DNA of 64,000 bases from contig JAVCDD010000015.1 in the NCBI GenBank assembly GCA_030765125.1, positions 2,939 to 66,938 on the forward strand. The letters run 5' to 3'. Both the position numbers and the translations under genes were made by a program. The DNA comes from Candidatus Hatepunaea meridiana. GTDB taxonomy: Bacteria; Electryoneota; AABM5-125-24; Hatepunaeales; Hatepunaeaceae. Every line of letters begins with the position of its first letter. The first letter of the stretch is position 1. Shown here piece by piece: positions 19,574-36,358 of this stretch. The notes beneath the pieces were generated by a model that saw nothing but the letters and a program-made list of their open reading frames with translations, ran no database searches and was not told the origin of the DNA.

Positions 19574-19738
19574 AAGATTGAGATAGGTGGACAGTAGTGA
19601 TACTGTCCACCTATCTCACTTTTACCTTTTGTCATTCCGGTTCCCCTTTTGTCATTCCGGACTTGATCCGGAATCCAGCCTTCCTTTTCGGTGCACTTTT
19701 CTTACATGCTTACTTGCTCACGTGCTTACTTTCTTACC

Positions 19739-21394
19739 TCACTTCAACAATACCATTCGGTGAATATTCCTATACTGGACATTGTTATCATTCTTAGCAA
19801 TAAACCTGTAGAAATATACTCCCGAAGAGACGGGGTTTCCTGCTTGGTTCATACCAAACCAGATTGCGCTATGATTACCAGGTGTTTGTCGGTTATTAAT
19901 CAGTTCAGTTATGAGACAACCGGAAACATCATAGATGCTGATGGAGACATCTGCCTCAAATGGGAGCGAGTAGCCGATCTCGGTTGATGAATTGAAAGGA
20001 TTCGGATAGATACCCATTGCTGCAAATTCCGTAGGCAGAGCTTCGTCGGACAAACCAACGCCCAATGCTGTGCCGACTAACGGGATTTCGAGTATATCTT
20101 CATCGCGGTCGTTGGATTCGATGAGCAGGCTGGCTTCATATCTTTGCTCTACAAGGGGTGCGAAACTGATAGTGACGACGCGGGATGAATCCGGTGAAAG
20201 CTCAAACTCCTGCTCTAAATCATTGATGCTGAACGGCATATTAACCGGATGAATCGTCCAGCTCTCAATCTGGAGCGGCAGCACACCGATATTCATTATT
20301 TCCAATTCCAATTCTACTATCTCATCAATCTGAACACCAATAAATTCAACGGTATCCGGTTCAACATCGATATTGCATTGCGGGTAGAAGAATGCGCCGA
20401 TGTCGGCACGTGTGCCGTCAGGGTCGGGGTCTGATTCGGGATCACCGGCATCGATGCAAGGGGAGTCGGAGGTTAAATAGTAAGAATCGGGGTAGATCCA
20501 AACGCTGTCTATCGGTCCGACCTGTAGCGGGTCTTGAAACAGGTTGCCGTACCTGTCCGTCGAATCGCCGTTGGCGTTGACCCGGTCGAGGATGCCGATG
20601 CCCTCAATATCAACGTTCTCGAATTCCTGATCATTGAACATGAAACAGTTATACTCCACATTATCATCGATTCCGGATAGTGCGATCCTATGACACACTA
20701 AGATATTGTTAAAAACCGAAGTCTCGTTATAAGCGTACAAAGCGCCTGACCAATTATTGCATATTTCACCGCGGAAAACACGCATACTACCGTAAATGAC
20801 GCATCGCTGTATTAAGCTGAAACCACCACGTAACCTCTCCCTGACAGGTAGCCCAGAGTAGGTGAAATAACAATCGGTAACAAACACATTTGAATTACGA
20901 CTTGTTCTTAGGCCGATCGAGGAAGTTACAAAAGTGCAATGAGAAAGAGTTGCGGTTAATTCTTCCCCGCCAAAAATCGAGACGGAACCTATATCAAGTT
21001 CCATATCGCATCCTTTAAGCCTGAATTCACAGAAAGACGCTCTGAAATCACTGTCCCCCTCTATCGAGATATATGACCAGCCATATCTATTATCTATATC
21101 CCTGAAGAATATGGAGTCATCTGCCGTCCCCTCCGTTATGAGCTTCGCACCTTCAACTACAAGTTCATGAGAAGACTCGAAAAGCACTTCAACGCCCGGT
21201 TCAATGATCAGAGTATCATTCTCCGCGATCCAAATAGCACGTTCCCTACCCGTAAGTATATATGGACTTCCATCGGTTGACCATATACCGGAAACCTCTC
21301 CTTCCACCCAGGTCGTGTCCGCAAATGAATTGACTAACGATAAGGGCGCAAGAACCAAAACAAAAAAGAATAATCGTTTCATGAACCACCTCAT
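19739..21394 (-). CDS. T9SS cargo protein paralog (beta-helix + conserved Ig-like module + T9SS CTD)
   Basis: 551 aa. Shares the module NRVNANGDSTD...DSPCIDAGDPESDPDPDG...ELELEIMNIGVLPL...SNDRDEDILEIPLVGTALGVGLSDEALPTEF with the two downstream paralogs. CTD is nucleotide-identical to that of 17822..19573. Confidence 0.75.
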   Translation of the reverse strand: MRWFMKRLFFFVLVLAPLSLVNSFADTTWVEGEVSGIWSTDGSPYILTGRERAIWIAENDTLIIEPGVEVLFESSHELVVEGAKLITEGTADDSIFFRDIDNRYGWSYISIEGDSDFRASFCEFRLKGCDMELDIGSVSIFGGEELTATLSHCTFVTSSIGLRTSRNSNVFVTDCYFTYSGLPVRERLRGGFSLIQRCVIYGSMRVFRGEICNNWSGALYAYNETSVFNNILVCHRIALSGIDDNVEYNCFMFNDQEFENVDIEGIGILDRVNANGDSTDRYGNLFQDPLQVGPIDSVWIYPDSYYLTSDSPCIDAGDPESDPDPDGTRADIGAFFYPQCNIDVEPDTVEFIGVQIDEIVELELEIMNIGVLPLQIESWTIHPVNMPFSINDLEQEFELSPDSSRVVTISFAPLVEQRYEASLLIESNDRDEDILEIPLVGTALGVGLSDEALPTEFAAMGIYPNPFNSSTEIGYSLPFEADVSISIYDVSGCLITELINNRQTPGNHSAIWFGMNQAGNPVSSGVYFYRFIAKNDNNVQYRNIHRMVLLK

Positions 21395-23031
21395 TTCAAA
21401 ACCGACATCTTTCTGGTCGCGTTGTAAACGGTCCCATGCTCCGTTACAGCCTCGATCTCATAGAAATATATTCCGGTAGGAACCGTTCGACCATTCGATG
21501 AAGTTCCGTTCCATGCAGCAGAGTGCCAACCGGCATTACGTAAACCTTCGTTCAACCGGCAGATCAATCTGCCCTCTATATCGAAGATGTCAATTCTTAC
21601 CCGTGACGGAGAATTGAGCGAATAAGGGATGTTTGTGGAAGTATTGAAGGGGTTGGGGTAGATGTCCGCTACAGCAAATTCAGTTGGCAGATCCGTATCG
21701 GACAAACCAACACCCAATGCCGTGCCGACTAACGGGATTTCGAGTATATCTTCGTCGCGGTCATTGGATTCGATGAGCAGGCTGGCTTCATATCTTTGCT
21801 CTTCAAGGGGTGCGAAACTGATAGTGACGACGCGGGATGAATCCGGTGAAAGCTCAAACTCCTGCTCTAAATCATTAATGCGGAACGGCATATTAACCGG
21901 ATGAATCGTCCAGCTATCAATCAGAAGCGGCAGCACACCGATATTCATTATTTCCAATTCTAATTCCGCTCTCTCATCTGGCTGAATATTTATAAATTCA
22001 ATGGTATCAGGTTCAACGTTGATGTTACATTGCGGGTAGAAGAACGCGCCGATGTCAGGGAAGGTGCCGTCAGGGTCGGGGTCATCTTCCGGGTTGCCGG
22101 CGTCGATGCAGGGGGAATCGTCTTGAAGGAAATGCTGGTCGGGGAAGTCGTCTCCTCCAACAAGCTGAGGGTCGAGTATCACATTGCCGAATCTGTCGGT
22201 GGAATCGCCGTTGGCGTTGACGCGGTTGAGGACGCCGACTTCTTCGATATCTTCCGAGGTTATTTCTGCATAATTATAAAAGCAATTGTTTGAAACGTTA
22301 ACAGCGTTACCGACAATCGCCGTCCCGCCGCCGCGGCTTAAAAAGATCGAATTAGTAACGCTGCCGCCTCCGTCATTGCATAGTACAAAACAAGTATTAT
22401 AAAATATGCAGTGATCAGCAATTCCCTTAACAGTTGCATGACCATAGGAGACCCTCTTAAATATACATCGTCTTACGATTGTACTGTCGTCTCTTTGTGG
22501 TATAATAGCCCTCCCATATACAATTCCGTCAAATAAACAGTCTTCAATGATGTAATCTGAACCACTTACATCTATACCTTTAGCAAGGCTATTGAATGTT
22601 GAATGCCTGACTTCAAGTGATGAAGCACCACTAATAGCTTCTGATGTACAAAAATAACCAAATACTGCGTAAAAATGACAATAATCGAATCTACCAGTTG
22701 AATTCTCACCTCTGAAATTTATACCACCCCAGCTTTCATGATCATCATAATTAAGAGGAATGAACAATATTGAATCGTCTATTGTTCCTTCGGCTGTTAT
22801 TGTTAGGTTATCACCTGCTATGTTAACATGAAAGCGAAATAAAACAATTACACCGGGTTCAATAATTAAATCGGCATCATCACTAAAACGCACATTTGTA
22901 TCAACTATATAAGGACTCCCCTCAATATCCCATACACCACCTTCCATTTGACCTCCGACGTGAGTTTCAGAGAACAAAAGAGGAGATAAAAGGAATTGAA
23001 GCAACAAAATAGTAAAGATTTTCTTAATCAT
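21391..23031 (-). CDS. T9SS cargo protein paralog (beta-helix + conserved Ig-like module + divergent T9SS CTD)
   Basis: 546 aa; 4-nt overlap with the upstream paralog; CTD variant IYPNPFNTSTNIPYSL...TRKMSVLK. Confidence 0.75.
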   Translation of the reverse strand: MIKKIFTILLLQFLLSPLLFSETHVGGQMEGGVWDIEGSPYIVDTNVRFSDDADLIIEPGVIVLFRFHVNIAGDNLTITAEGTIDDSILFIPLNYDDHESWGGINFRGENSTGRFDYCHFYAVFGYFCTSEAISGASSLEVRHSTFNSLAKGIDVSGSDYIIEDCLFDGIVYGRAIIPQRDDSTIVRRCIFKRVSYGHATVKGIADHCIFYNTCFVLCNDGGGSVTNSIFLSRGGGTAIVGNAVNVSNNCFYNYAEITSEDIEEVGVLNRVNANGDSTDRFGNVILDPQLVGGDDFPDQHFLQDDSPCIDAGNPEDDPDPDGTFPDIGAFFYPQCNINVEPDTIEFINIQPDERAELELEIMNIGVLPLLIDSWTIHPVNMPFRINDLEQEFELSPDSSRVVTISFAPLEEQRYEASLLIESNDRDEDILEIPLVGTALGVGLSDTDLPTEFAVADIYPNPFNTSTNIPYSLNSPSRVRIDIFDIEGRLICRLNEGLRNAGWHSAAWNGTSSNGRTVPTGIYFYEIEAVTEHGTVYNATRKMSVLK

Positions 23032-23070
23032 TTTTCTCTCATTTTAATGATTCTGCTGAAAAACATCCTA

Positions 23071-23283
23071 TTTTGTCATTCCCGCGAAACAGACAGTCCG
23101 AGAATGCTGAAATCCCGCTGGCAGACGCCCTCGTCTGCCAGTTAAGTCCTTGTTTTTTCGTCAGACGAGGGCGTCTGACGACGGGTGAATATCTATTCTC
23201 GGACAGTCTGGAAAGCTGGAATCCAGATGGAGTGTTAAATACTTGAAAACTCTGGATTCCCGCTTTCGCGGGAATGACAAATA
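23071..23283. mobile_element. MITE-A copy (TTTTGTCATTCCCGCGAA... TIRs) interrupted by a nested ~125-bp hairpin element
   Basis: The left TIR is truncated after ttttgtcattcccgcgaaa. It is followed by an insert with its own inverted repeats cagacagtccgagaa/ttctcggacagtctg, carrying GTCAGACG hairpins homologous to 1895..1992. The insert is followed by the MITE-A centre and an intact right TIR. Confidence 0.55.
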
Positions 23284-23319
23284 AATGATCGCAGGCAGAG
23301 ACACCTACGCTACTATCAA

Positions 23320-25158
23320 TTATCGGATTAAAACCATCCGGTTTACAATATTTTCAGTATTGCCCGCATCATATTCAATGGAAATATTGTATAAATAGAT
23401 ACCTGAAGCAACTTCCAAACCACTTCTGTCAAGACCGTTCCAGGTAACACGGTTAGCGCCTGCTTGCTGCATACCGGAAACAAGTTCCTTAACGAGCCTG
23501 CCTTTGATGTCGTAGATCCTTAAGCTGACTTCACCGGATTGCGGAATGCTATAGCTGATCTCGGTTGATGAGTTGAAAGGATTCGGATAGATACCCATTG
23601 CTGCAAATTCCGTAGGCAGAGCTTCGTCGGACAAACCAACGCCCAATGCTGTGCCGACTAACGGGATTTCGAGTATATTCTCGTCGCGATCATTGGATTC
23701 GATGAGCAGGCTGGCTTCATATCTTTGCTCTTCAAGGGGTGCGAAACTGATAGTGACGACGCGGGATGAATCCGGTGAAAGCTCAAACTCCTGCTCTAAA
23801 TCATTGATACGGAACGGTATATTATCCGGGTGAATCGTCCAGCTCTCAATCAGAAGCGGCAGCACACCGATATTCATTATTTCCAGTTCCAATTCCGCTC
23901 TCTCATCAGGTTGAATATTTACAAATTCAACGGTATCGGGTTCAACGTTGATGTTACATTGCGGGTAGAAGAATGCGCCGATGTCGGGGAAGGTGCCATC
24001 AGGGTCAGGGTCTGACTCGGGGTCGCCAGCGTCGATGCAAGGCGAGTCATCGGACAGGTGGAAGTCGTCGTTATCATGATCGATGAATTGAGGATCTTCA
24101 TGAATTACATGATCACTGTACTCCTCAAGCCATTCGCCTTCAATATCGCAATAGGATAAGATCACCTCGTCAACATCTTCATAGAAGTGAACTTGAGGTC
24201 CTTCATAGGCACGGTTTCCCCAGAATATACAGTTCGATACAATACTCCATTCATTAGCCACAACACAGATACCACCACCAATTTCACTTTCGTTAAATAC
24301 GATAGTATTTGAATGGAATCGAAAAGGTCTCGCAGAATGATCAAAATATATAGCTCCACCCGCGTTTCCAGCACTATTATATGAAAAAACGTTATATTGC
24401 ACTTCTGCTAAGGTGAGATGACCCAAGCTTAATGCACCGCCATTGTAACCTGCTTGGTTACCGATAAACATATTTCCTGTTATGGTAAATTCCCCGAAAG
24501 GTGATTCCCAAGTCCCGATTGCTCCACCAGACCCTAAAGCGGAATTATCAATAAACAGGTTCTCAACAACCCTGATATCTCCGGAAAACCTAATACTCAA
24601 TGCTCCACCGCTGACTCCACAATTCTCTATAAATAAGTTTCTTTCAATAGTTACGGGATGGCAAAAATATGTGCATATAGCTCCACCCCACCAGTAACAT
24701 TGATTGTCTGAAAAAGTGGAGTTACTGATATTCAATTCGGCTTCCTCACAATAAAGAGCACTGCCTCGGACGTAGTTATCTTCATCACCTACGATGCAAT
24801 TACTGACTATACAATATCTTAATGTTACCACAGCACCACTATCAGCCCTGATACCACACCAGAATTCCTCGTCTTCATCGGAATGAAAAACTATGGAGTC
24901 ATCTACCGCTCCCTCTGCAAGAAGTTCACCATAAACCAACAGCGAATAGGGACCATTGAAATTTATTATTACACCGGGTTCAATCATCAGTGTATCTTCA
25001 GCGGGGATAAAGATGGTGTCCAGGACGACTACAGGCGAATCGTCGATAGTCCATGTACCACTTACTTCGTCTTCAACTTCAATTGCGTATAGATTATTTA
25101 ATGCAAGTATGCAGAATATTGACAAGGCGACGCAAATAAGTATTTGTTTTTTGTTCAT
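23320..25158 (-). CDS. T9SS cargo protein paralog with pbH1-type parallel beta-helix repeats, conserved Ig-like module and T9SS CTD
   Basis: 612 aa with glycine-rich pbH1-like repeats (SGGALSIRFSGDIRVVENLFIDNSALGSGGAIGT), the conserved module shared with 19739.. and 21391.., and CTD ...GIYLYNISIEYDAGNTENIVNRMVLIR. Confidence 0.75.
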   Translation of the reverse strand: MNKKQILICVALSIFCILALNNLYAIEVEDEVSGTWTIDDSPVVVLDTIFIPAEDTLMIEPGVIINFNGPYSLLVYGELLAEGAVDDSIVFHSDEDEEFWCGIRADSGAVVTLRYCIVSNCIVGDEDNYVRGSALYCEEAELNISNSTFSDNQCYWWGGAICTYFCHPVTIERNLFIENCGVSGGALSIRFSGDIRVVENLFIDNSALGSGGAIGTWESPFGEFTITGNMFIGNQAGYNGGALSLGHLTLAEVQYNVFSYNSAGNAGGAIYFDHSARPFRFHSNTIVFNESEIGGGICVVANEWSIVSNCIFWGNRAYEGPQVHFYEDVDEVILSYCDIEGEWLEEYSDHVIHEDPQFIDHDNDDFHLSDDSPCIDAGDPESDPDPDGTFPDIGAFFYPQCNINVEPDTVEFVNIQPDERAELELEIMNIGVLPLLIESWTIHPDNIPFRINDLEQEFELSPDSSRVVTISFAPLEEQRYEASLLIESNDRDENILEIPLVGTALGVGLSDEALPTEFAAMGIYPNPFNSSTEISYSIPQSGEVSLRIYDIKGRLVKELVSGMQQAGANRVTWNGLDRSGLEVASGIYLYNISIEYDAGNTENIVNRMVLIR

Positions 25159-25631: not shown

Positions 25632-25961
25632 TGTTCCTCTCCGTTCTAATTTGTTTAGCGCCAAAAGGTTATTTAAACAAACCACACCTATATTCATAAT
25701 ACTAAAAGAAAAAGGACTTGTCAAGCATTATTTTCATTTTTATGGGATATTATTACCCCAAAAATCGATGAATATTGGATTTGTATCTATGGTATTCATT
25801 TGCATAGAATCCCCTATATGCTCGTAAACTTTCTAACATTCAATTTTCAAACTTATATTTCACTTGACTTCATATCCTATTAAATCTATATTATATAACT
25901 GATTTAGTCTTAACTCAAACTCCAATCATCCTGCTGTATTCCGAAGTAAGGGAGTTTTTCT

Positions 25962-25995
25962 TAGTTGTGTCAGGTGTTAACACCTGACACAACTA
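25962..25995. promoter_or_regulatory. perfect 34-bp palindrome ~65 bp upstream of the giant LVIVD gene start (candidate operator)
   Basis: tagttgtgtcaggtgttaacacctgacacaacta, exact dyad symmetry around GTTAAC. Confidence 0.4.
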
Positions 25996-26059
25996 AATAT
26001 AGAACGCTTCGTTGTGCGGAATACGCCGGCGGAGCTTTTTTATTATAAGGGAAGAAACA

Positions 26060-29000
26060 ATGGTTCACCGATTTGCTTTAATTCTCTCGCTGATGGTTTT
26101 CTGCTTAACCATCACAACCGTATCAGCCCAGGAAATCATCGAAGTAGGAGACTTTGATACACCAGGGCTGGCTAAGGACGTTGTCGTCGCCGGTAACCAC
26201 GCATACATTGCGGATTACGGCAGCGGTCTGCGTATCATCAACATATCCGATCCGGAAAACCCTGATGAAGTCGGGGCTTTTGACACTCAGGGGAATGCTT
26301 GGGGCGTCGTCGTTTCCGGTGATTTCGCTTACATAGCTGACTACGCAAGCGGATTGCGTATAGTCAATATTTCCGATCCGGAAAATACCAATGAGGTTGG
26401 TAATTACGACACGCCAAGTCACGCCTTTAGCGTCGTCGTTATAAACAGCCTTGCTTATATCGCAGATGGCGAGGAGTCCGGATTACTCATAATAAACGTC
26501 GCCGATCCGGCAAATCCCGACATAGTTGCAAGCTTTGAGACTGAGGGAACCGCCTTCGACGTTTCCGTTGTCGGTAATCTTGCATACATCGCAGACGCTG
26601 GTTTTCTGCGCATTATTGATGTGTCTGATTTAGACAATATGGTCGAAGTCGGAACTATTGAAACTCGGGGTACCGCCAAAGGCGTAGCTGTCGCCGGTGA
26701 TTATGCTTACATCGCTGATGGCGAAAGCGGGTTGCGTATTATCAACGTATCCGATCCGGAGAACCCGGAAGAAGTGGGGGACTTCAATACACCCGACGAT
26801 GCCAGCGATGTTACCGTTGTCGGCAGCTATGCCTACGTAGCTGACGGTGAAAGCGGTCTTTACATAATTGATGTTTCTAATCCGGAGGAACCGGAAGAAG
26901 CAGGTTCTTTCGATACCCCGAACGAGGCGATAGGCGTCACCGGAAATGATGAATATATATACATAGCAGATAACACAAGCGGTCTGCTTATTCTAAACGT
27001 ATCCGAATTTCACATTCCTATTATTGCCGTTGCCCCTGAAGCCCTTGACTTTGAAGAGGTCGAGTTAAACCAGAGTGCGGAATTGACTTTGACCATCAAT
27101 AACGAGGGTGGTAATGATCTGACCATTTCGGATGTCTCATTAACTGGAGACCACTTCAGCGTTGACTTTGAAGATGAAGTTGTCGTTGAACGAGATGAAG
27201 ACTATGAATTAACGGTAACCTTTGCGCCTGAGGAAATCGGTGAACTACGGGATACTTTAATAATTACATCCAACGATCCTGATAACGGTGAAGTAACCAT
27301 ATTCCTGAGTGGTGTTGGCGTAGGACCGGTTATTTCCATTGATCCCGAGACGATGGTCTTCGGTCAGGTGTTAGTCGGTGAAGCTGGTGAGATGATTATT
27401 ACAATCAGCGACTCTGGAAACACTAATCTAATTGTGTCTGATATTTTAGTTGAAGGCGATTATTTCTACGTTGATTTCGAGCAGGAGTTAGTAATTGAAC
27501 CGAACGGCGCCGCTGAAGTGTCGGTCAGCTTTGCACCTGAAGAATTCCGCGATTGCCAGGGAACACTGACTATTACATCCAACGATCCTAATCGGGATGA
27601 GATAGTTATCAACTTAACTGGTTCTGGGGTTGCAGTAGCCATCCGCGAGGTCGGCGCTTTCAATACGCCGGGCGAGGCGCGGGGCATTGCGGTAGTTGGT
27701 GATATTGCTTACATTGCAGATGGTCAAACCGGTTTGATTATTTTCGATATTTCCAATCCTGCCGAACCGGATTCTCTTGGAGCCTGTGATACGCCTGGTG
27801 ATGCATACTACGTCATCGTCGTAGGTGAATATGCTTACATCGCCGATCAAACAGGCGGTTTAAGGGTAATTAATGTTTCCGATCCAACTGAACCCGAAGA
27901 AGTCGGATACTACGATACTGCCGGTGAAGCCAGAGGCGTTGCTGTGCTTGGGAACTATGCTTATATCGCAGACGGTGATCCAGGTCTCATAGCAATAAAC
28001 ATCTCTAATCCTGAAGATCCGGAGCAGGTAGGAGCATTCAATTCTCCCGGAACGGCAAGGGGTGTCACAATCTCAGGGGAATACGCTTATGTATCGGATG
28101 GAGGAAGCGGTCTTCGTATCGTAGACTTGTTTGATCCACGCAGCCCGGAAGAAATTGGCTCTTTCGATACACCGGGGTGGGCGTTGAGTTCCTTTATCGC
28201 TGGAGATTACGCTTATGTTGCCGACTGGCGCAATGGTATGCAGATCATTGATATATCCGATTTGGAAAATCCTGATTTGGTGAGCTCTTTTGATACACCG
28301 GGTGAAGCTTTGAACCTTGCAATTGTTGGTAATTACGTTTATATTGCTGATTTAGGTAGTGGTCTGCGAATGATCGACGTATCCAACCGTCGTCAACCTG
28401 AAGAAGCCGGATACTTTGATACACCCGGTAACGCAAGAGGCGTTGCCGTAATTGGTGACTATGCTTACGTAGCTGATGGACCGGGTGGATTGCGTATCCT
28501 CGATGTATCTAACATCGGCGAACCCTTACCGTTTATCTCAGTAGCGCCTTTAGAATTGGACTTCGGTGAGGTGATGCTGAATGAAGGTACGCAGTTGGCT
28601 ATAACAATCAGCAATGTTGGCGGTGCTGATCTGACCATTTCAGAAGTTGTCAGCAATTTTGGATGCTTTACAACCGATTTCGAGGATGAGATTGTCCTTG
28701 AACCAGATGAAAGTGAAAATGTAATGGTTACGTTTACACCGGATCATCACGGACTATTTGAAGGAACTATAACCATTACTTCAAATGATCCATTTACCGA
28801 AGAAGTAACTGTTACTCTGCGTGGAAACGGAATTATCGGCGTTATCCATCATATTGGTTTCTTTGATACGGAAGGGCATGCACTGGATGTGGTAATTGAA
28901 AATAATTATGCCTATGTGGCTGACCGGCGAGCTGGAATGAGCATAATCAGTATTGCCGATCCGTTTAATCCGAGTGAAGTTGGATACATCGATTCACCGG

Positions 29001-31234
29001 GTGACGCACGCGGTGTTGCCGTCCAGGGTGATTATGCTTATATAGCGGATTGGAATCAAGGATTGCGTATTATACTCGTCAGCCGTCCAACCCTTCCGCG
29101 CGAAGCTGGATTCTTTGTTACCGATGGAAATGCTCGAGGTGTCGCCGTAGCCGGGAACTATGCTTATGTTGCAATGCAGGAGAGCGGTCTTAGTATCATT
29201 GACATATCCGATCCCGCAGAACCCAGCGAAGTTGGCTCTTTCGATACACCGGGAGCTGCCTATGCCGTTGCCGTTGTTGAAGACTATGCTTATGTCGCTG
29301 ACGGAACAGGTGGACTTAGGGTGATAAATGTTTCAGATCCGCAAGAGCCTCGGGAAGTCGGCGCTTATGATACTGAGGGTCAATCTTATGGCATTACAGT
29401 TGATGGTGAGTTAGCATACGTTGCTGATGGTGACGGCGGTTTACGCATCATTAACATATCCGATCCGGAACATCCTGAAGAAGTGGGAGCATATCAAGAA
29501 TTGGAGCAATCCTGGGACGTTGCTGTTGAAGACGGCTTTGCATACATAGCGGACTATGAAAACGGTCTGCGCTTAATAGACGTTTCCGATCCCGAAAATC
29601 CCAACGAGGTCGGAGACTATGACACTCCTGGACTAGCTTACGGAGTCGCTGCCGCAAACGAGCATTACGCTTACGTAGCAGATTATGATAGCGGATTACG
29701 TATCCTTGACGTATCTGAAGTCATCGGTTGGGAAGCGCAAGATCCTGCTATTATCGTTTCACCGGATGAGTTAATCTTCGATCAGGTTGAGATCGGTCTG
29801 AATCGTAATCTCAACATTACTATTCGCAATGAAGGCAATGCTGATTTGATTGTATCCAATATTTATGTTACTGACAATGCTTTCAGTGTAGATTTCCCTG
29901 ATCAGCTCGCTATAGAGCCCGGCAACAGCGAAGAGATTGTGGTTACTTTTGCACCTGACAGATTCAGCGAATCCGAAGGAGACCTGATTATCGAATCCAA
30001 CGATCCGAATGGCGACGTATCAATCTCTTTGATCGGTTCAGGTGTTTACATTGTGATTAGCGAGATGGGGTATTTCGATACTGAAGGAAATGCTAAAGAC
30101 GTCGCAATCGTGGGTGATTACGCCTATGTAGCTGATGGTGAAGCGGGAATAAGCATAATAGATATTACCGATCTGCAAAACCCCAATGAAGTAGGAACAT
30201 TAGATACACCGGACGAAGCTTTTGCAATTGAGGTAGTTGGTGATTATGCTTATGTGGCAGACAAAGAGAGCGGGTTGCGCGTCATTAACATCTCAAATCC
30301 TGAGCAACCGGAAGAGGTTGGTTCTTATGACACACCGGGAATGGCAAGAGAAGTTGTTGTTGTCGGCAACTATGCTTACGTTGGCGATGGCGCTGATGGT
30401 TTCCGAGTGATTGACATATCAACTCCTGACGACCCACGTGGTACAGGCATCTATAATACACCTGACGAAGCCTGGGGAATCACCATTATCGGTGAATACG
30501 CATACGTAGCGACAAGGGAAAGAGGGTTGCGTATTCTAAACATCTTCGATCCGCAACGTCCAAATGAGGTTGGATTCTACGATACGCAGAGATACGCCCG
30601 CGACGTCAGCGTGTCCGGTGACTATGCTTATGTGGCAGACGGCACCGGCGGACTGGTCGTGTTAAATATTTCTGATCCGGAGCATCCTCGTAAAGAGGGC
30701 GAATTATTAACTATGGACGAAGCTCGCAGTATCACCATCCGTGGAAATTTTGCATTCGTCGCCGATAAGGAAGGTGGATTGCGGATTATTGATATCTCGC
30801 ATCCGGATGATCCGGAAGAGATCGGATTCTATAATACTTCAGACGAGTCTTTCGGAGTTACTGTTGTGGATGACAGATATGCCTACGTAGCGGACGGAGA
30901 GAACGGACTGCGAATACTTGACGTTTCAAACATCCACGGCGTAAACGATCAACAGGATAATCCTATTCCAACGGAATTCAATTTATCGGCAGCCTATCCG
31001 AATCCGTTCAACTCGACTATGAATATATCGTATGACCTGCCCGTCCTGACAAATATTTCATTGCAGATATTCGATGTCAACGGTAGAGTTACAGCAACGC
31101 TTTATTCAGGTGCAAGAGCGCCGGGGCGTTATCATTCAATTTGGAACGGACGCAATTCACCATCAGGCATTTACTTGATTAGGTTGAATTCATCCGATTT
31201 CAATGCTGTACGTAAAGTAGTACTAACGAAATGA
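26060..31234 (+). CDS. giant secreted LVIVD-repeat protein: four ~7-bladed LVIVD beta-propellers separated by choice-of-anchor-D Ig-like domains, with T9SS C-terminal sorting domain
   Basis: 1724 aa from the ATG at 26060 (track ORF begins at an upstream TTG). Signal peptide MVHRFALILSLMVFCLTITTVSAQ. Contains >25 copies of a ~40-aa unit G.YAY[IV]AD...GL[RV]I[IV][DN][IV]SDP.NP.EVG.[YF]DTPG.A.GV.V. Ig-like segments such as ELTLTINNEGGNDLTISDVSL...ITSNDPDNGEV appear four times. C-terminus AAYPNPFNSTMNISYDL...IRLNSSDFNAVRKVVLTK. Confidence 0.8.
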   Translation: MVHRFALILSLMVFCLTITTVSAQEIIEVGDFDTPGLAKDVVVAGNHAYIADYGSGLRIINISDPENPDEVGAFDTQGNAWGVVVSGDFAYIADYASGLRIVNISDPENTNEVGNYDTPSHAFSVVVINSLAYIADGEESGLLIINVADPANPDIVASFETEGTAFDVSVVGNLAYIADAGFLRIIDVSDLDNMVEVGTIETRGTAKGVAVAGDYAYIADGESGLRIINVSDPENPEEVGDFNTPDDASDVTVVGSYAYVADGESGLYIIDVSNPEEPEEAGSFDTPNEAIGVTGNDEYIYIADNTSGLLILNVSEFHIPIIAVAPEALDFEEVELNQSAELTLTINNEGGNDLTISDVSLTGDHFSVDFEDEVVVERDEDYELTVTFAPEEIGELRDTLIITSNDPDNGEVTIFLSGVGVGPVISIDPETMVFGQVLVGEAGEMIITISDSGNTNLIVSDILVEGDYFYVDFEQELVIEPNGAAEVSVSFAPEEFRDCQGTLTITSNDPNRDEIVINLTGSGVAVAIREVGAFNTPGEARGIAVVGDIAYIADGQTGLIIFDISNPAEPDSLGACDTPGDAYYVIVVGEYAYIADQTGGLRVINVSDPTEPEEVGYYDTAGEARGVAVLGNYAYIADGDPGLIAINISNPEDPEQVGAFNSPGTARGVTISGEYAYVSDGGSGLRIVDLFDPRSPEEIGSFDTPGWALSSFIAGDYAYVADWRNGMQIIDISDLENPDLVSSFDTPGEALNLAIVGNYVYIADLGSGLRMIDVSNRRQPEEAGYFDTPGNARGVAVIGDYAYVADGPGGLRILDVSNIGEPLPFISVAPLELDFGEVMLNEGTQLAITISNVGGADLTISEVVSNFGCFTTDFEDEIVLEPDESENVMVTFTPDHHGLFEGTITITSNDPFTEEVTVTLRGNGIIGVIHHIGFFDTEGHALDVVIENNYAYVADRRAGMSIISIADPFNPSEVGYIDSPGDARGVAVQGDYAYIADWNQGLRIILVSRPTLPREAGFFVTDGNARGVAVAGNYAYVAMQESGLSIIDISDPAEPSEVGSFDTPGAAYAVAVVEDYAYVADGTGGLRVINVSDPQEPREVGAYDTEGQSYGITVDGELAYVADGDGGLRIINISDPEHPEEVGAYQELEQSWDVAVEDGFAYIADYENGLRLIDVSDPENPNEVGDYDTPGLAYGVAAANEHYAYVADYDSGLRILDVSEVIGWEAQDPAIIVSPDELIFDQVEIGLNRNLNITIRNEGNADLIVSNIYVTDNAFSVDFPDQLAIEPGNSEEIVVTFAPDRFSESEGDLIIESNDPNGDVSISLIGSGVYIVISEMGYFDTEGNAKDVAIVGDYAYVADGEAGISIIDITDLQNPNEVGTLDTPDEAFAIEVVGDYAYVADKESGLRVINISNPEQPEEVGSYDTPGMAREVVVVGNYAYVGDGADGFRVIDISTPDDPRGTGIYNTPDEAWGITIIGEYAYVATRERGLRILNIFDPQRPNEVGFYDTQRYARDVSVSGDYAYVADGTGGLVVLNISDPEHPRKEGELLTMDEARSITIRGNFAFVADKEGGLRIIDISHPDDPEEIGFYNTSDESFGVTVVDDRYAYVADGENGLRILDVSNIHGVNDQQDNPIPTEFNLSAAYPNPFNSTMNISYDLPVLTNISLQIFDVNGRVTATLYSGARAPGRYHSIWNGRNSPSGIYLIRLNSSDFNAVRKVVLTK

Positions 31235-31257: not shown

Positions 31258-31416
31258 ACCGTGGTTGACAGCCTGTGAACAGAGCCCGTTCAGAAAAGAA
31301 ATGCTGAACGGGCTCTGTTATGTAAAACGGAGAGAGCGGATATTCCTGTCCACCACATTATTCATCTTCAAACCAACCCAGCTGTCAGGGCGCCGTTCCT
31401 GACAGCAATACAACAA
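31258..31416. repeat. cluster of REP-like hairpins (CTGTCA family plus a perfect 16-bp stem)
   Basis: ctgtcatcccaccgtggttgacag; aacagagcccgttcag...ctgaacgggctctgtt; ctgtcagggcgccgttcctgacag. Confidence 0.55.
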
Positions 31417-31670: not shown

Positions 31671-31777
31671 CAGTAGCGTAGACGTACCCGCCTGTGGAAA
31701 CACTTCTAGCAGGCAGAAGGGAGGGGGGGGCCGCTCCTAATTATTTACTTTCGCAGGCAGGGACGTCTACGCTACTG
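31671..31777. repeat. inverted repeat CAGTAGCGTAGACGT...ACGTCTACGCTACTG enclosing a G8 homopolymer tract
   Basis: cagtagcgtagacgtacccgcctg ... caggcagggacgtctacgctactg with gggagGGGGGGGGcc at 31723..31730, 30 bp upstream of the OMP gene start. A related half-site lies at ~23291. Confidence 0.5.
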
Positions 31778-31806: not shown

Positions 31807-33099
31807 ATGAGAAAACTAATCGTTATTTTCCTTTGCGCACTGCTGTTTACAGTTTCAAGTGCATTCAGCCAATTACTTACCGATTACACAGATGTAGGCA
31901 ATGGCGCTCGCGCGGCTGCAATGGGTAATGCCTTCACCGGGCTCGCAGATGATGCCACGGCTGTTGCATGGAATCCTGCCGGTCTAACGCAATTGGGTAT
32001 GCCTGAGTTCAGCATCGTTGGACGCTACAATCTGGGATACTCAACAATGAAATGGTCAAATGTCGAATTTCTCGATAAATTCAGCATTTCTCAATCATCT
32101 CAGTTTGACATCAACTTTTTAAGTTTCGTCCTTCCAATAAATACAGAAAGTATCGGGCTTGGAGTATTAGCGGATATCGGTATCTCCAAGTTTGTTCCTG
32201 CGATAGCTTATCGTACAATGTATGACTGGGCTTTCAAGCAGAAGAGAACCCGAAAATACAGTGATGACGATACAGAAATAGAAATAGTTGAAGATATTAA
32301 GCAAAAAGGCGGCATTAAGGTGCTTTCTACTGCATTCGCAACCGAATTTGGACGTCTCTCCGGTGGTATGACATTAAACTTTATCAAAGGCGACCTTGAA
32401 TATAAATACGAACATAAGCAGGACGGTCAAATTCAAGATTCTGACAACTACAATGTCGAGGACTACAAAGGCAGGTCCGTTGACTTTGGTCTTTCATTGG
32501 ACGGCACCTGGATTGGTAATAGCGGTGGAAGAACTGGGATAGTACTCGGAGCGAAGCTATCCCCTGGGTACGTCCGAAGCAATGTTTACGTAGACGCCAA
32601 TGATAATCGTACTAAGCGCGAACTGAAAATTCCATATTTCTACACTTATGGCGCTGCCGTGCTATTTAGTGAAAGCTTTACGGTAACCGTTGACTATCGA
32701 TCTCATAATTGGTCTGATTCGGAATCCCGGAACGAAGTGAATGGAGCGTGGACCGATTGGGCAGAGTATACAAACAATGACCTGAATGCATGGCATTTTG
32801 GAATGGAGAAATTAAACCTCACAACTGGTGCATCATTTCGGTTGGGCTACTATAATAAACCGTATGTTGACGATGACGCCAATGGAGACCAGATTGTAAA
32901 TGAAGTTTTTACAATAGGAATGGGATTTGCCAAAAAGAACTTCAGTCTGGACTTTTCGTCACAGTTCGAACTACACAGCTATTTATGGCGTAAAATTGAC
33001 GAATCTGAATATACAGACAAAGGCGGTGAATTAAGCTTTTCTTCAAGCTTGATTATCTACATTGACTTTATGGACATATTTGATAAACTGCAGAGGTAG
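31807..33099 (+). CDS. FadL-like / PorV-PorQ-type beta-barrel outer-membrane protein
   Basis: 430 aa with signal peptide and N-terminal motif GNGARAAAMGNAFTGLADDATAVAWNPAGL, typical of the FadL/PorV-like OMP superfamily. It sits immediately after the T9SS cargo genes. Confidence 0.5.
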   Translation: MRKLIVIFLCALLFTVSSAFSQLLTDYTDVGNGARAAAMGNAFTGLADDATAVAWNPAGLTQLGMPEFSIVGRYNLGYSTMKWSNVEFLDKFSISQSSQFDINFLSFVLPINTESIGLGVLADIGISKFVPAIAYRTMYDWAFKQKRTRKYSDDDTEIEIVEDIKQKGGIKVLSTAFATEFGRLSGGMTLNFIKGDLEYKYEHKQDGQIQDSDNYNVEDYKGRSVDFGLSLDGTWIGNSGGRTGIVLGAKLSPGYVRSNVYVDANDNRTKRELKIPYFYTYGAAVLFSESFTVTVDYRSHNWSDSESRNEVNGAWTDWAEYTNNDLNAWHFGMEKLNLTTGASFRLGYYNKPYVDDDANGDQIVNEVFTIGMGFAKKNFSLDFSSQFELHSYLWRKIDESEYTDKGGELSFSSSLIIYIDFMDIFDKLQR

Positions 33100-33129
33100 C
33101 GTCTTATCTTGTTCAACTCAATAAAATAT

Positions 33130-33230
33130 ACAAAATCAGTAGAAGCGACACTCTTGTCGCTTGAATGTTAGATTTACCACAACTTTGTAAGCGACGCAAG
33201 CGACAAGAGTGTCGCTTCTACTGATTTTGT
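33130..33230. mobile_element. MITE-C (33-bp TIRs ACAAAATCAGTAGAAGCGACACTCTTGTCGCTT)
   Basis: Perfect terminal inverted repeats flank a 35-bp centre; a second copy with the same TIR core lies at 40149..40240. Confidence 0.55.
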
Positions 33231-33277
33231 AACTCTTTAATAATTGAAGAATAAACGCTATTTTTAAAGGGAGTATC

Positions 33278-36200
33278 ATGAAAACAAACAAGAACTTATT
33301 CCTCATTTCAGCGCTTATAGCAATAATATGCTTTCAAGTAAACACTGCCGGCGCTGCAAACTGGTACGATCTATATGCACGCGGAACCAGACTGATGAAG
33401 AAGGAAAACTACGACAAGGCAGCCGAATGCTTTGCTAATGCGCTGAAACAGAACGATTCGGATAATCCGCGTGTTCGTACTTCAGGAATGCGCTTTATTA
33501 AATACTACCCACACAGAGAACTGGGTATATGCTATTACAATCTGGGTCGGTATTCAGAAGCTATGGAACAATTACGGGTTTCAATCCGGCAGTCTTCTAC
33601 CTCCAGTGCAAAGAGTTATCTGTCATTGGCTGAAAAGCAGATGGTTAATGTTCAAAATCAGATTAAGCAAGACAAGATAAAACAGGACGCTCTCGCCAGG
33701 GAAGCTCAAGAACGGGAAAAACAAGAAAGAATTAAAAAGAACGAACTCGCCAGGATAGAGTCGTCTGATCTGGGAGTCGCGGGTCAAGAATCCCACATAG
33801 AGATTACTCCATTGAAGAGGTTGAAGGAACAACCTGGATTGGTTGTCAGTATGGCATTCAGTCCCGATAGCAAATACTTAGCAAGCAGAAGCGGCAGCAA
33901 CATCCAACTATGGAATACTGAAACCGGTTCAAGCGCCGGGAAACTTACCGGGCATTCAGATGGTGTCTGGGATCTATGCTTCAGCGGGGATGGACAGCTT
34001 GCAAGCGCCAGCTTTGATGAAACTTCCAGGTTGTGGTCTATTGTAAACAAGCAATCAACCAGAACAATAACCGGACATTCGGCAAAGGTTCGGGCTGTTG
34101 CTCTCAGCCCTGACGGCAAGAGGCTCGCAAGCGGTGACGGGGATGGTATTATTAAACTATGGGATATGCAAAACGGACAGGAATTGAAATCGTTCAATCA
34201 TTATAACCGATGGATCAATACACTTGAGTTTAGTCCAAATGGATCCATACTTGCGAGCGGAGATGGCAATGGGACAATCAAACTGTGGAATATATATAAC
34301 GGTGAAGAGATTAAAACGCTTAAAGGACATTACGAAAGAGTAGATGTAGCATTCAGTCCGGACGGAAAGTATCTCGCCAGCGGTAGCAAAGACACAAAGA
34401 TTAAAATATGGGATGTTGAGAACGGCAATGTGATCAGAACATTGGAGGGACATACTTCCTCTGTCAATTCGATCTGCTTCAGTCCGGACGGCTTTTGGCT
34501 GGCAAGTGGAAGTGGGAAATGGGACGGTGGAGGCGAGAACAATTCGGTCAGGATCTGGTTAGTTGGCAGCGGTCAGGAAGTTAGAAAAATAAAAGCCTAC
34601 AATACTGTCTATTCAGTTGCATTCAGTCCGGATGGCTCTATGCTCGCCGCTGGAAGCGGGGATTATAGCACTGCCAAAGGTGAAGTCGAACTGTGGCGGG
34701 TTAAAATGCACAAACCGGAATTCGGTCTTCCTCCAAACCTGTTTGCCGAACTTAGCTTTGAAGATGACAATGGTAACGGTATACTCGATGCGATGGAATC
34801 AGCGCTGTTGGAAGTAACCCTCTATAACAAAGGGAAAGGTACTGCCCATCTTCTGCAGATTTGTATTGAGGACGATCAATATGATCCTGAACTGAAAATC
34901 GGAGGGAATGTAGTCTGGGAGTTACCCTCTAAAAATCAGACGAAAGTCACTATTCCTATTAGAACAGGCATGGACCTGAAATCTGCAAAACACCGGTTTA
35001 AAATCAGTGTTCTCGAGTACTTCGGATATGATATGGATCCAGCATACCTATCGCTCAACACGCAGGAATATTCGCCTCCAAAACTTGTCTATTCCGGTAT
35101 GGACATTGATGATTGGAGTGAGGGAACCGGCGGCAATGATGAGGATGGTCAGTTGCAGGCTGGTGAACTGGTTAAAATGAAGATTGTTGTGCAGAATATT
35201 GGTCAGGAGCCTGCGCTTAATACGAAATACTCCGTCAGAAGCGATGATAATAATATACGCCTCAAAGAAGGATACGGCACACTCGGCACAATAAAACCAG
35301 GGGAAGTCAAGGAATTTTGGATCACCATCAGTCCAAACAAACGTGTTACAACTGAGGATGATCTGCCCGTTTATCTGACGATGACTGAATCGATAGGCAA
35401 AGGCAAACTTTTAAATTTCCAGTTACCGATAAAGCTCAACCAGAAGCCTCCCCAAATGAATGTTGTCGAGGTCAAACCGGATTTGTCGCGACTCCAGCAA
35501 CAGATCGCAAAGTTTGAATACACATCTTCTAAATTCAAGACCCGTATTAAAAAGAAAGAAGATGTATGGGCTGTCAAGCGGTCTCGTTCGAGTCGACCGA
35601 ATTCTACAGCAGTCGTGATAGGCGTAGAAAATTATAAAAAACTTGCGCCGGCGCCATTTGCTGCAAGAGACGCTGATCTAATGGAAAAGTATTTTAGGGA
35701 GCTGCTTGGTGTTGATAATGTTGTTCTGTATAAGGATAACGACGTCTCAGGTATGGTGTTCGATGATATTTTCAACCCTGACAATGGTGAACTTCAGACG
35801 TCAATTATCCAAGGGGAAACAGAACTGTTTGTATATTACTCCGGTCACGGCATCCCGAATAAAACCGGTTCAGAGGTATATCTTGTTCCTTCTGATGTAA
35901 AAATTCACCGGCTTGAAGAACAGGGATACAGCTTGAACAAGTTCTATAAGAATCTGAGCGAGTTGGGCGCTAAAAATACGATGGTGATACTCGATGCCTG
36001 TTTCAGCGGTGGGTCGCGTTCAACCGGCAGTATAAAAGAAGAGAATCTCGTTGCACACAAGGCTGTTGGACTAAAGATCAAGGAGCCGTGGCGGACTTAT
36101 AAGAACTTTACGGTAATAAACTCGTCAACCGGTAGTGAGACCTCGTTGGGATTTGACCAGTCGGAGACAGGGCTGTTTACCTACTATCTGGCATTAGGAC

Positions 36201-36358
36201 TGAAAGGCAAAGCTGATGACAACAATGACCAAAAGGTAACGGTCGGTGAACTCAAACGATACGTAATCGCAAACGTAAAGGAAACGTCGAAGAAGATGTT
36301 AGGTTTACAGACGCCGCAATTCTACGGTGATGAGAGTCGGGTGTTGGTGGAGTATTAA
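33278..36358 (+). CDS. secreted multidomain protein: signal peptide - TPR - coiled coil - WD40 beta-propeller - Ig/CARDB-like domains - C-terminal caspase-like (peptidase C14) domain
   Basis: 1026 aa. About 8 WD40 repeats (TGHSDGVWDLCFSGDGQLASASFDETSRLWS; GHTSSVNSICFSPDG...). C-terminal caspase His/Cys dyad contexts YYSGHGIPN and MVILDACFSGGS. Confidence 0.7.
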   Translation: MKTNKNLFLISALIAIICFQVNTAGAANWYDLYARGTRLMKKENYDKAAECFANALKQNDSDNPRVRTSGMRFIKYYPHRELGICYYNLGRYSEAMEQLRVSIRQSSTSSAKSYLSLAEKQMVNVQNQIKQDKIKQDALAREAQEREKQERIKKNELARIESSDLGVAGQESHIEITPLKRLKEQPGLVVSMAFSPDSKYLASRSGSNIQLWNTETGSSAGKLTGHSDGVWDLCFSGDGQLASASFDETSRLWSIVNKQSTRTITGHSAKVRAVALSPDGKRLASGDGDGIIKLWDMQNGQELKSFNHYNRWINTLEFSPNGSILASGDGNGTIKLWNIYNGEEIKTLKGHYERVDVAFSPDGKYLASGSKDTKIKIWDVENGNVIRTLEGHTSSVNSICFSPDGFWLASGSGKWDGGGENNSVRIWLVGSGQEVRKIKAYNTVYSVAFSPDGSMLAAGSGDYSTAKGEVELWRVKMHKPEFGLPPNLFAELSFEDDNGNGILDAMESALLEVTLYNKGKGTAHLLQICIEDDQYDPELKIGGNVVWELPSKNQTKVTIPIRTGMDLKSAKHRFKISVLEYFGYDMDPAYLSLNTQEYSPPKLVYSGMDIDDWSEGTGGNDEDGQLQAGELVKMKIVVQNIGQEPALNTKYSVRSDDNNIRLKEGYGTLGTIKPGEVKEFWITISPNKRVTTEDDLPVYLTMTESIGKGKLLNFQLPIKLNQKPPQMNVVEVKPDLSRLQQQIAKFEYTSSKFKTRIKKKEDVWAVKRSRSSRPNSTAVVIGVENYKKLAPAPFAARDADLMEKYFRELLGVDNVVLYKDNDVSGMVFDDIFNPDNGELQTSIIQGETELFVYYSGHGIPNKTGSEVYLVPSDVKIHRLEEQGYSLNKFYKNLSELGAKNTMVILDACFSGGSRSTGSIKEENLVAHKAVGLKIKEPWRTYKNFTVINSSTGSETSLGFDQSETGLFTYYLALGLKGKADDNNDQKVTVGELKRYVIANVKETSKKMLGLQTPQFYGDESRVLVEY

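Follow-up and report, generated by a model that had tools for sequence, protein, structure and literature searches.

The first description of LVIVD repeats came from archaeal cell-surface proteins. Our literature search returned only the 2004 definition of the repeat and structure modelling, with no protein of the present type characterised; among the choice-of-anchor families, F and K are treated in the literature, and nothing functional was found for B or D. (In print, 'LVIVD' is mostly an abbreviation from veterinary cardiology.) The only solved structure found by a sequence profile, built here from 34 propeller blocks, is Sb-PTE (E = 4.8e-10), a phosphotriesterase/haloalkylphosphorus hydrolase of Sphingobium sp. 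TCM1 (PDB 5hrm/5ioj). A search of solved structures with the whole protein gave marginal matches only, and the 34-block profile was needed to reach Sb-PTE. Like the blocks described below, Sb-PTE is a seven-bladed propeller with recognisable, degenerate LVIVD-like motifs. However, at about 500 residues with large insertions, it forms one propeller only and has neither Ig domains nor a type IX secretion system (T9SS) C-terminal sorting domain (CTD), and its repeats are far more degenerate than the near-consensus repeats of our LVIVD-Ig protein. The insertions are also apparent in the Foldseek comparison, where 456–462 aligned columns are returned for a 312-residue query. Sb-PTE contains a binuclear manganese centre (as given in the title of entry 5ioj), whereas no conserved candidate metal ligands were seen among the 34 blocks. 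The seven-bladed WD40 propellers (e.g., 2ymu, WDR5, and beta-TrCP) share 9–15% sequence identity with the LVIVD-Ig protein, which lies outside the WD40 sequence family; most WD40 proteins are found inside the cell, whereas the LVIVD-Ig protein is predicted to be exported.

The gene lies within a 64-kb stretch of DNA (hereafter the window), in which all coordinates are counted. Judged by the malate dehydrogenase, the nearest genomes are unclassified metagenome-assembled genomes (81–85% identity), followed at 64% by Fidelibacterota. Its open frame spans 26012–31234 of the forward strand when counted from the first possible start. The ATG at 26060, preceded by the purine-rich stretch AAGGGAAGAAACA, gives a product of 1724 residues (26060–31234, forward strand). 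Residues 1–23 (26060–26128) constitute a predicted signal peptide, read from the translation, with a positive n-region, a hydrophobic core and an A-x-A-like site; cleavage is predicted after VSA, between MVHRFALILSLMVFCLTITTVSA and QE. The extreme C-terminus carries a T9SS type A CTD (residues 1646–1724; 30995–31231), matched at residues 1646–1721 by both TIGR04183 (36 bits, cut-off 23) and PF18962 (38.1 bits, cut-off 27). The two sequence features of T9SS type A cargo, i.e., a type A CTD scoring above cut-off and a Sec signal peptide, are thus both present. Five further genes of the window also encode a T9SS CTD, six altogether, and it is because of these six genes that a T9SS is very likely present in the host; no gene for the secretion machinery itself (SprA, PorU, PorV, PorK-N) was recognised within the 64-kb window.

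Between the two sorting signals, the chain is made up of LVIVD repeats and Ig-like domains. The Pfam LVIVD model (PF08309) matches in 26 stretches with 964.9 bits against a gathering score of 20.2 (E = 2.6e-299). A motif scan, together with an HMM built from the units, resolves 28 units of 41–43 residues each (typically 42), which form exactly four blocks of seven, at residues 35–328, 537–830, 938–1237, and 1342–1637. An additional strand of the 'EVG.FDT' type stands ahead of each block, and the last unit of each block is devoid of that strand. The four propellers so delimited, all encoded on the forward strand, are propeller 1 (26129–27007, residues 24–316, with unit matches at residues 35–328), with the closing strand EIIEVGDFDT; propeller 2 (27641–28513), with AIREVGAFNT; propeller 3 (28844–29716), with VIHHIGFFDT; and propeller 4 (30056–30931), with VISEMGYFDT. 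Each comprises its closing strand and seven units, supported by both Pfam LVIVD and unit matches for propellers 1, 2, and 4. The choice-of-anchor B model (TIGR04312, 364 positions) attains 259.8 bits against a cut-off of 100 when summed over seven partial stretches, the best of which spans model positions 261–345 only, a match that reflects the LVIVD content and not one full-length domain. In the DNA, the repeat has a period of 126 nt and its copies are 60–77% identical, whereas the four blocks are 45–50% identical to one another in protein sequence, no closer than they are to the blocks of other organisms. This level of divergence rules out a recent internal duplication or an assembly artefact; the array is accordingly old and maintained.

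The propellers are separated by choice-of-anchor D domains, for which NF012200 scores 154.2 bits against a cut-off of 45 in four stretches, with additional matches to PF22544, ASH, and DUF1573. Their order is 2+1+1, i.e., a pair after block 1, a single domain after block 2 and another after block 3. The tandem pair (residues 319–424 and 422–527; 27014–27640, forward strand) is matched by NF012200, PF22544, and PF22073, and its two members score 161 and 158 bits with an HMM built here. Domain 3, at about residues 822–928 (28523–28840, forward strand), is matched by PF22544 at residues 825–923 and by NF012200 at residues 824–911, and is all-beta in the predicted structure (pLDDT about 80–92). 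Domain 4, at about residues 1227–1332 (29744–30052, forward strand), contains PF22067 and CARDB stretches at residues 1238–1320 and scores 156.8 bits with our HMM. The first-pass annotation, made from the sequence alone, had described a 1724-residue T9SS cargo of four LVIVD propellers with choice-of-anchor D domains in between, an approximately 40-residue unit recurring more than 25 times in four blocks of about seven, a pair of Ig-like domains between blocks 1 and 2 and one between later blocks, and a terminal T9SS CTD. The Pfam and NCBIfam matches, the unit scan, and our own HMM agree with this description on every point, at the coordinates given and well above what chance would produce.

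The same annotation had proposed a structure prediction of one block as a check for a seven-bladed propeller, and AlphaFold2 indeed predicts this fold (pLDDT 95.2, pTM 0.91), with 28 strands plus an N-terminal closing 'velcro' strand. Compared with known structures by Foldseek, the single-block model gives TM-scores of 0.75–0.80. A 713-residue model of a propeller-Ig-propeller segment, which takes in propeller 2 and Ig-like domain 3, has a pLDDT of 91.1 (above 90 in the propeller regions) with a pTM of 0.52, so that the three domains are predicted with confidence but their mutual orientation is not. The low pTM may stem from the shallow alignment of 10 sequences used for this model, and not from real flexibility; the linker from the Ig domain to the propeller is approximately four residues in the same model.

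Among the 34 propeller blocks, the positions that are invariant or at least 90% conserved are occupied by Ala, Gly, Pro, Tyr, Leu, and Val only, and none of the residues His, Glu, Asp, Ser, Cys, and Lys is conserved at any blade-specific position. In 11 of the 28 units an aromatic residue follows the conserved Ala, in 12 units Arg or Lys does, and in none an acidic residue; the loop following 'YVAD' is likewise variable. Judged by strand order and by analogy with WD40 topology, both variable positions would be located on the top face of the propeller, which is therefore a candidate binding face.

LVIVD propeller proteins are very numerous; when sequences are clustered at 50% identity, 59,033 clusters match at E ≤ 0.001, and 17,750 do so at E ≤ 1e-30. 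Homologues as a rule have their repeats in blocks of seven; in 35 of the best 120, these blocks alternate with the Ig domain seen here, and 29 of these 35 end in a T9SS CTD. The same modules, namely seven-repeat LVIVD blocks, choice-of-anchor D domains in between and a type A CTD, are found in relatives (e.g., P0001, P0002, P0016, P0019, and P0020) from Candidatus Hatepunaea meridiana (Electryoneota), Calditrichota, and unclassified metagenome-assembled genomes of the FCB group. NCBI names these relatives 'choice-of-anchor D domain-containing protein' or 'T9SS type A sorting domain-containing protein'. The closest by identity, P0001, is 40% identical over 66% of the query. P0002 and P0020 contain repeats for four propellers, and a second 28-repeat gene adjoins that of P0002; one locus (L001) contains two tandem genes, each with 28 repeats, Ig domains and a CTD. 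The most frequent forms are P7-Ig4-P7-CTD (about 1120 residues) and P7-Ig-P7-Ig-CTD (about 1220 residues), where P7 denotes a seven-repeat block; none of the homologue architectures examined had precisely the order P7-Ig-Ig-P7-Ig-P7-Ig-P7-CTD. The architecture had been called unusual for LVIVD proteins, a view that these counts, the other 28-repeat proteins and giant relatives of up to 6901 residues do not support. Uncultured relatives of Bacteroidota commonly have the propeller-Ig-T9SS design, and the gene is thus one ordinary representative of a large family, which by itself adds no new kind of system. We note that LVIVD propeller proteins frequently rank as the largest surface proteins predicted for uncultured bacteria of the FCB group, and that the present gene provides a clean, complete and near-consensus example, suited to producing individual propellers for crystallography or binding screens. 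Homologues have other T9SS cargo genes as neighbours, and the two LVIVD genes of L001 adjoin a gene whose product combines a C25 peptidase domain with a T9SS CTD, as does the T9SS sortase PorU.

The domain composition, repeat count, predicted fold, sorting signals, and family abundance are established above; surface attachment, a binding role and the nature of what is bound are inferred. On balance, we lean towards a multivalent cell-surface binding protein (an adhesin or a ligand-capture protein), Sec-exported and handled by the T9SS, and not an enzyme. The protein would be exported by Sec, after which the type A CTD would direct its transfer across the outer membrane through the T9SS. The mature protein would consist of eight folded modules, four seven-bladed LVIVD propellers, each closed by the strand that precedes its first repeat, and four choice-of-anchor D domains, the latter serving as short spacers. 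If it behaves like other type A cargo, the protein would lose its CTD after transfer and be either attached to the surface or released. Several points speak against this reading: type A cargo can be released instead of anchored, no T9SS machinery gene was recognised in the window, and the PorV-like gene downstream scores below every cut-off. The four propellers would then act as separate binding heads on the surface, each presenting its top face, where the most variable positions, rich in aromatic residues and Arg/Lys, would be gathered.

A different role is suggested by the genes directly upstream. Four paralogues (17822–25158, reverse strand; 583, 551, 546, and 612 residues), which by Pfam and NCBIfam each comprise a beta-helix, a choice-of-anchor-D-like Ig domain and a T9SS CTD, share 39–52% identity among themselves, and their transcription diverges from that of the LVIVD gene. 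Metagenomic giants of 3980–6901 residues (P0121–P0125) contain seven-repeat LVIVD propellers, 42–45% identical to the query segment and flanked by the same Ig domains, and add many beta-helix modules as well as a C-terminal region of approximately 700–1200 residues that falls outside the four domain models used. Four of them (P0121, P0122, P0123, and P0125) interleave beta-helix-Ig with seven-repeat propeller-Ig modules, and the two with a complete C-terminus, P0121 and P0123, both end in a T9SS CTD. The beta-helix-Ig modules that are internal to the giants are separate genes in the window. The paralogue at 23320–25158, the one of the four whose matches were examined, aligns to the beta-helix-Ig modules of the giants over both the helix and the Ig domain (27–34% identity, E down to 1.6e-36). 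By domain fusion, the four paralogues are possible functional partners of the LVIVD protein, and this link offers a concrete and testable hint.

Taken further, the LVIVD-Ig chain and the four beta-helix-Ig-CTD proteins could be separate subunits of a single envelope layer or fibre exported by the T9SS, a structural surface coat that related organisms make as a single giant polypeptide. The adjacency of the genes, a beta-helix and CTD gene located 4.7 kb from an LVIVD-Ig-CTD gene at a second locus (L002), and the archaeal cell-surface proteins in which the repeats were first described are in line with such a coat. However, domain fusion shows that modules of both kinds are able to function within a single protein and says nothing on the assembly of separate proteins, the neighbourhoods of homologues vary, and the LVIVD and beta-helix genes do not form one operon, because they are divergently transcribed; we regard the coat as unlikely. 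The broader proposal, that the LVIVD-Ig protein and the four paralogues represent a 'split' form of the 4000–7000-residue mosaics of related uncultured FCB-group bacteria, jointly building from propeller, beta-helix and Ig modules an undescribed T9SS-dependent fibre or coat widespread in Electryoneota, Calditrichota, and allied phyla, is in our estimate quite improbable.

That each propeller might instead resemble Sb-PTE in holding an active site within its central channel, making the protein a secreted multi-site hydrolase or lyase acting on an extracellular substrate, would suit the enzymatic nature of the one solved structure with detectable sequence homology and the fact that many T9SS cargo proteins are hydrolases, but we consider it very unlikely in view of the missing blade-specific conservation of potential catalytic residues in the 34 blocks, the absence of a match to any catalytic family in Pfam and NCBIfam, and the near-consensus repeats, which are typical of scaffolds, as opposed to the larger, insertion-rich and more degenerate Sb-PTE.

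On the downstream side, the first-pass annotation had the LVIVD gene immediately followed by a gene for a FadL/PorV-like outer membrane protein. This is indeed the next gene (31807–33099), but it starts 572 nt past the LVIVD gene, beyond a 16-bp hairpin, and its likeness to these families is weak. It scores 50.8 bits against PorV_fam (cut-off 90), 18.9 against T9SS_OM_PorV (250), 17.5 against PorQ (220), 42.3 against BamG (250), and 16.9 against the FadL model Toluene_X (29.7), and an N-terminal motif alone aligns well to the PorV/PorQ/FadL-type models; by sequence, it can be called weakly FadL/PorV-like, below every family cut-off. No relative was found in the metagenome scan or, by sequence, in the PDB. 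A tblastn search of four homologous loci found no counterpart near the LVIVD genes, and on this ground, together with the differing neighbours and the empty metagenome scan, a conserved pairing of the two genes was rejected.

The LVIVD gene itself is flanked by two inverted repeats, for which an Rfam scan gave sub-threshold matches only, reflecting the long hairpins. The hairpin after the gene (31278–31319, forward strand), with a perfect 16-bp stem and a 10-nt loop, begins 44 nt after the stop codon and is probably a transcription terminator; a consensus terminator scan did not list it, because it has no T-tract. Ahead of the gene, 64 nt upstream of the start codon, lies a perfect 36-nt palindrome (25961–25996), with 18-nt arms that are 100% complementary and directly abutting. 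No second copy was found within the window, where none would be expected by chance, and this unique palindrome is a possible operator.

The open reading frame of the LVIVD gene extends over 26012–31234 on the forward strand, and translation from the ATG at 26060, preceded by a purine-rich stretch, gives a protein of 1724 residues, in agreement with the first-pass annotation. By its sequence, the N-terminus (MVHRFALILSLMVFCLTITTVSA followed by QE) is a typical Sec signal peptide, and it has no lipobox cysteine. Pfam LVIVD (PF08309), proposed as a check, matches 26 stretches of the protein (964.9 bits, E = 2.6e-299), and a scan for the ‘YAYVAD’ core motif and an HMM derived from the units equally find 28 units, spaced by 41–43 residues. 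What had been described as more than 25 repeats in four blocks of about seven is exactly 4 × 7, with seven units each in block 1 (residues 35–328), block 2 (537–830), block 3 (938–1237) and block 4 (1342–1637). The DNA carries the same repetition as a 126-nt period, with copies 60–77% identical. The four inter-block domains match the NCBIfam choice-of-anchor D model (154.2 bits, cut-off 45) as well as the Pfam Ig models HYDIN/VesB-like, ASH, DUF1573 and Cep192_D4, and they follow the proposed pattern of a pair and then singles: two after block 1, one after block 2 and one after block 3. The expected T9SS type A sorting domain (CTD) occupies the last 79 residues and scores above both curated cut-offs. 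All elements listed in the first-pass annotation are found at their stated places. In addition to the LVIVD, choice-of-anchor D and CTD thresholds, the protein exceeds the curated threshold for choice-of-anchor B; its NCBI name would be ‘choice-of-anchor D domain-containing protein’, as for its homologues. A perfect 36-nt palindrome (TTAGTTGTGTCAGGTGTT/AACACCTGACACAACTAA), unique in the window, lies at 25961–25996, 64 nt upstream of the start codon, and could be a site for a dimeric regulator.

LVIVD was defined in 2004 as a 42-residue repeat found in cell-surface proteins of archaea and bacteria (PMC2447325), and a later study modelled it as a propeller (PMC8078820); no functional study of LVIVD proteins was found in the literature. 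Before its first unit, each of the four blocks has an additional copy of the strand that ends the unit (EIIEVGDFDT, AIREVGAFNT, VIHHIGFFDT and VISEMGYFDT), and the seventh unit of every block lacks this strand and continues into the linker, a combination that is the signature of propeller ‘velcro’ closure. In the AlphaFold2 model of block 3 (residues 926–1237; pTM 0.91, pLDDT 95.2), the N-terminal closing strand comes first, the 28 strands form seven groups of four, and Foldseek gives TM-scores of 0.75–0.80; together these values confirm the seven-bladed propeller predicted earlier. A second model, of 713 residues, comprises propeller 2, the third Ig domain and propeller 3, and was built from a 10-sequence alignment. 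Its pTM is only 0.52 despite a pLDDT of 91.1, i.e., the three modelled domains are well defined and their relative orientation is not. The linkers in this model are short, with about four residues from the last Ig strand to the next closing strand and about ten from propeller to Ig, and the model fits modules on short hinges, although the shallow alignment could also account for the low pTM.

The first-pass annotation regarded this architecture as unusual for LVIVD proteins, a claim that does not survive comparison with the homologues. Among the candidates scored in a whole-protein search, 2467 proteins match at E ≤ 1e-10; the best match (40% identical) is from Candidatus Hatepunaea meridiana (phylum Electryoneota, FCB group), and further matches carry the label Calditrichaeota. 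(The malate dehydrogenase of the host, an uncultured bacterium, is 81–85% identical to those of unclassified MAGs and 64% to that of a Fidelibacterota MAG.) When HMMs for unit, Ig domain and CTD were applied to the best 120 of the 2467, runs of 7, 14, 21 or about 28 units predominated, and the same Ig domain stood between seven-unit blocks (each P7) in 35 of the 120, 29 of which also end in the CTD. Architectures that recur are P7-Ig4-P7-CTD (about 1120 residues, many members), P7-Ig-P7-Ig-CTD (about 1220 residues) and P14-Ig-P7-Ig-P6-CTD (homologues P0002 and P0020). Four blocks occur with spacers of about 100 residues in P0054 and P0067, and with longer spacers of about 200–350 residues, which the Ig HMM does not match, in P0007, P0029 and P0040. 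When 1.84 billion cluster representatives were searched exhaustively with the P7-Ig-P7 segment as query, 59,033 matched at E ≤ 0.001, of which 17,750 reached E ≤ 1e-30. The exact module order of the LVIVD protein was not found among the architectures examined; it is one ordering within a modular scheme that is very common, and the architecture is ordinary. Identity between the blocks of the protein is 45–50%, no closer than to blocks of other organisms. The protein is a member of a large, old and maintained family.

From established T9SS biology, Sec would export the protein across the inner membrane, the CTD would next direct it across the outer membrane, and upon removal of the CTD the protein would be attached to the surface or released. 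The most variable positions among the 28 units are the two neighbours of the conserved alanine in ‘PG.A.GV’, together with the loop that follows ‘YVAD’. Directly after that alanine, 11 of 28 units have an aromatic residue, 12 have Arg or Lys and none has an acidic residue. With ‘A.GV.V’ as strand A, ‘YAYVA’ as strand B, ‘GLRIID’ as strand C and ‘EVG.YD’ as strand D, the variable positions fall in the D-A and B-C loops. In WD40-type propellers these loops make up the top face, the usual ligand-binding face, and by analogy they are a candidate binding face here. We favour, with modest confidence, a multivalent binding protein of the surface, its four heads independent of one another and set on short Ig spacers.

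It is less probable, and on balance unlikely, that the protein is a structural component of a coat or fibre, acting with the beta-helix paralogues. Upstream of the LVIVD gene, 17822–25158 on the reverse strand holds four tandem paralogues (39–52% mutual identity), each combining a right-handed beta-helix with a single choice-of-anchor-D-like Ig domain and a T9SS CTD. Among the top-scoring representatives of the P7-Ig-P7 search are four giant metagenomic relatives of 3980–6901 residues (P0121, P0122, P0123 and P0125) with the architecture (beta-helix-Ig-Ig)n followed by (P7-Ig-beta-helix-Ig-Ig)n; in P0121 and P0123, the two with a complete C-terminus, a long region outside the four HMMs used and then a T9SS CTD follow. 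The one paralogue whose matches were examined (23320–25158) aligns to modules of the giants over helix and Ig (27–34% identity, E down to 1.6e-36). The gene kinds that adjoin in the window are therefore fused in relatives, which hints at a shared function, and such domain fusion is no proof of interaction. Homologue neighbourhoods are not conserved, except that other T9SS cargo genes are frequent. At locus L002, an LVIVD-Ig-CTD gene lies 4.7 kb from a beta-helix and CTD gene. Locus L001 (1–14449 of a metagenomic contig) carries, in order, a gene that combines a C25 peptidase domain with a T9SS CTD, as in the T9SS sortase PorU, a seven-unit LVIVD and CTD gene, an unrelated 433-residue gene, and two 28-unit genes with two Ig domains and a CTD each; the second is P0002, and the first has no Pfam matches on record, though LVIVD repeats are clearly present. 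A catalytic centre is disfavoured by an alignment of 34 blocks (the four of the LVIVD protein and 30 non-redundant seven-unit blocks from homologues), in which the positions that are invariant or at least 90% conserved hold only Ala, Gly, Pro, Tyr, Leu and Val, the structural residues of the repeat, and no blade-specific polar residue is conserved.

The gene said to follow immediately, which encodes a FadL/PorV-like outer-membrane protein (OMP) of 430 residues at 31807–33099, starts 572 nt after the LVIVD stop codon. A perfect 16-bp hairpin is located 44 nt past that codon, with sigma-70-like hexamers beyond it, and because of the gap, hairpin and hexamers separate transcription of the two genes is probable. 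The OMP has a signal peptide and, in its N-terminal part, the ‘GARAAAMGNAFTGLADDATAVAWNPAGL’ motif that typifies the FadL/PorV superfamily, and at that level the label is acceptable. All family models score below their cut-offs, i.e., PorV_fam (50.8 bits, cut-off 90), BamG (42.3, 250), PorV2 (41.8, 325), PorV (18.9, 250) and Toluene_X (16.9, 29.7). No relative of the OMP was found near homologous LVIVD genes, in the PDB or in the metagenome scan, and a functional link between the two genes finds no support. In contrast to this sub-threshold product, 41515–42939 on the reverse strand encodes a genuine outer-membrane transporter of the FadL/TodX family (Toluene_X, 159 bits). An imperfect 29-nt inverted repeat (86% complementary, 49-nt spacer) lies just upstream of the OMP start, at 31671–31777.

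Between the OMP gene and the next gene is a hairpin of about 165 nt (33096–33261); its Rfam matches as a plant microRNA precursor are far below thresholds on both strands, and it is therefore simply a long inverted repeat. In the 1026-residue product of that next gene (33278–36358, forward strand), a WD40 propeller is combined with a caspase domain (Peptidase_C14) at the C-terminus, an arrangement of STAND-like or defence-like type; the ‘EACC1-associated caspase’ model also matches, below its threshold. Two overlapping forward-strand reading frames at 37248–39198 encode an AAA_21 (AbiEii-like) ATPase and a sub-threshold DUF4276 match (29.4 versus 30.2 bits), a pairing that resembles known two-gene modules of anti-phage or toxin type. 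Of the CTD-bearing genes in the window, the sixth (60546–63608, forward strand; 1020 residues) has a C-terminal T9SS CTD as its sole family match, and its product is another large cargo protein.
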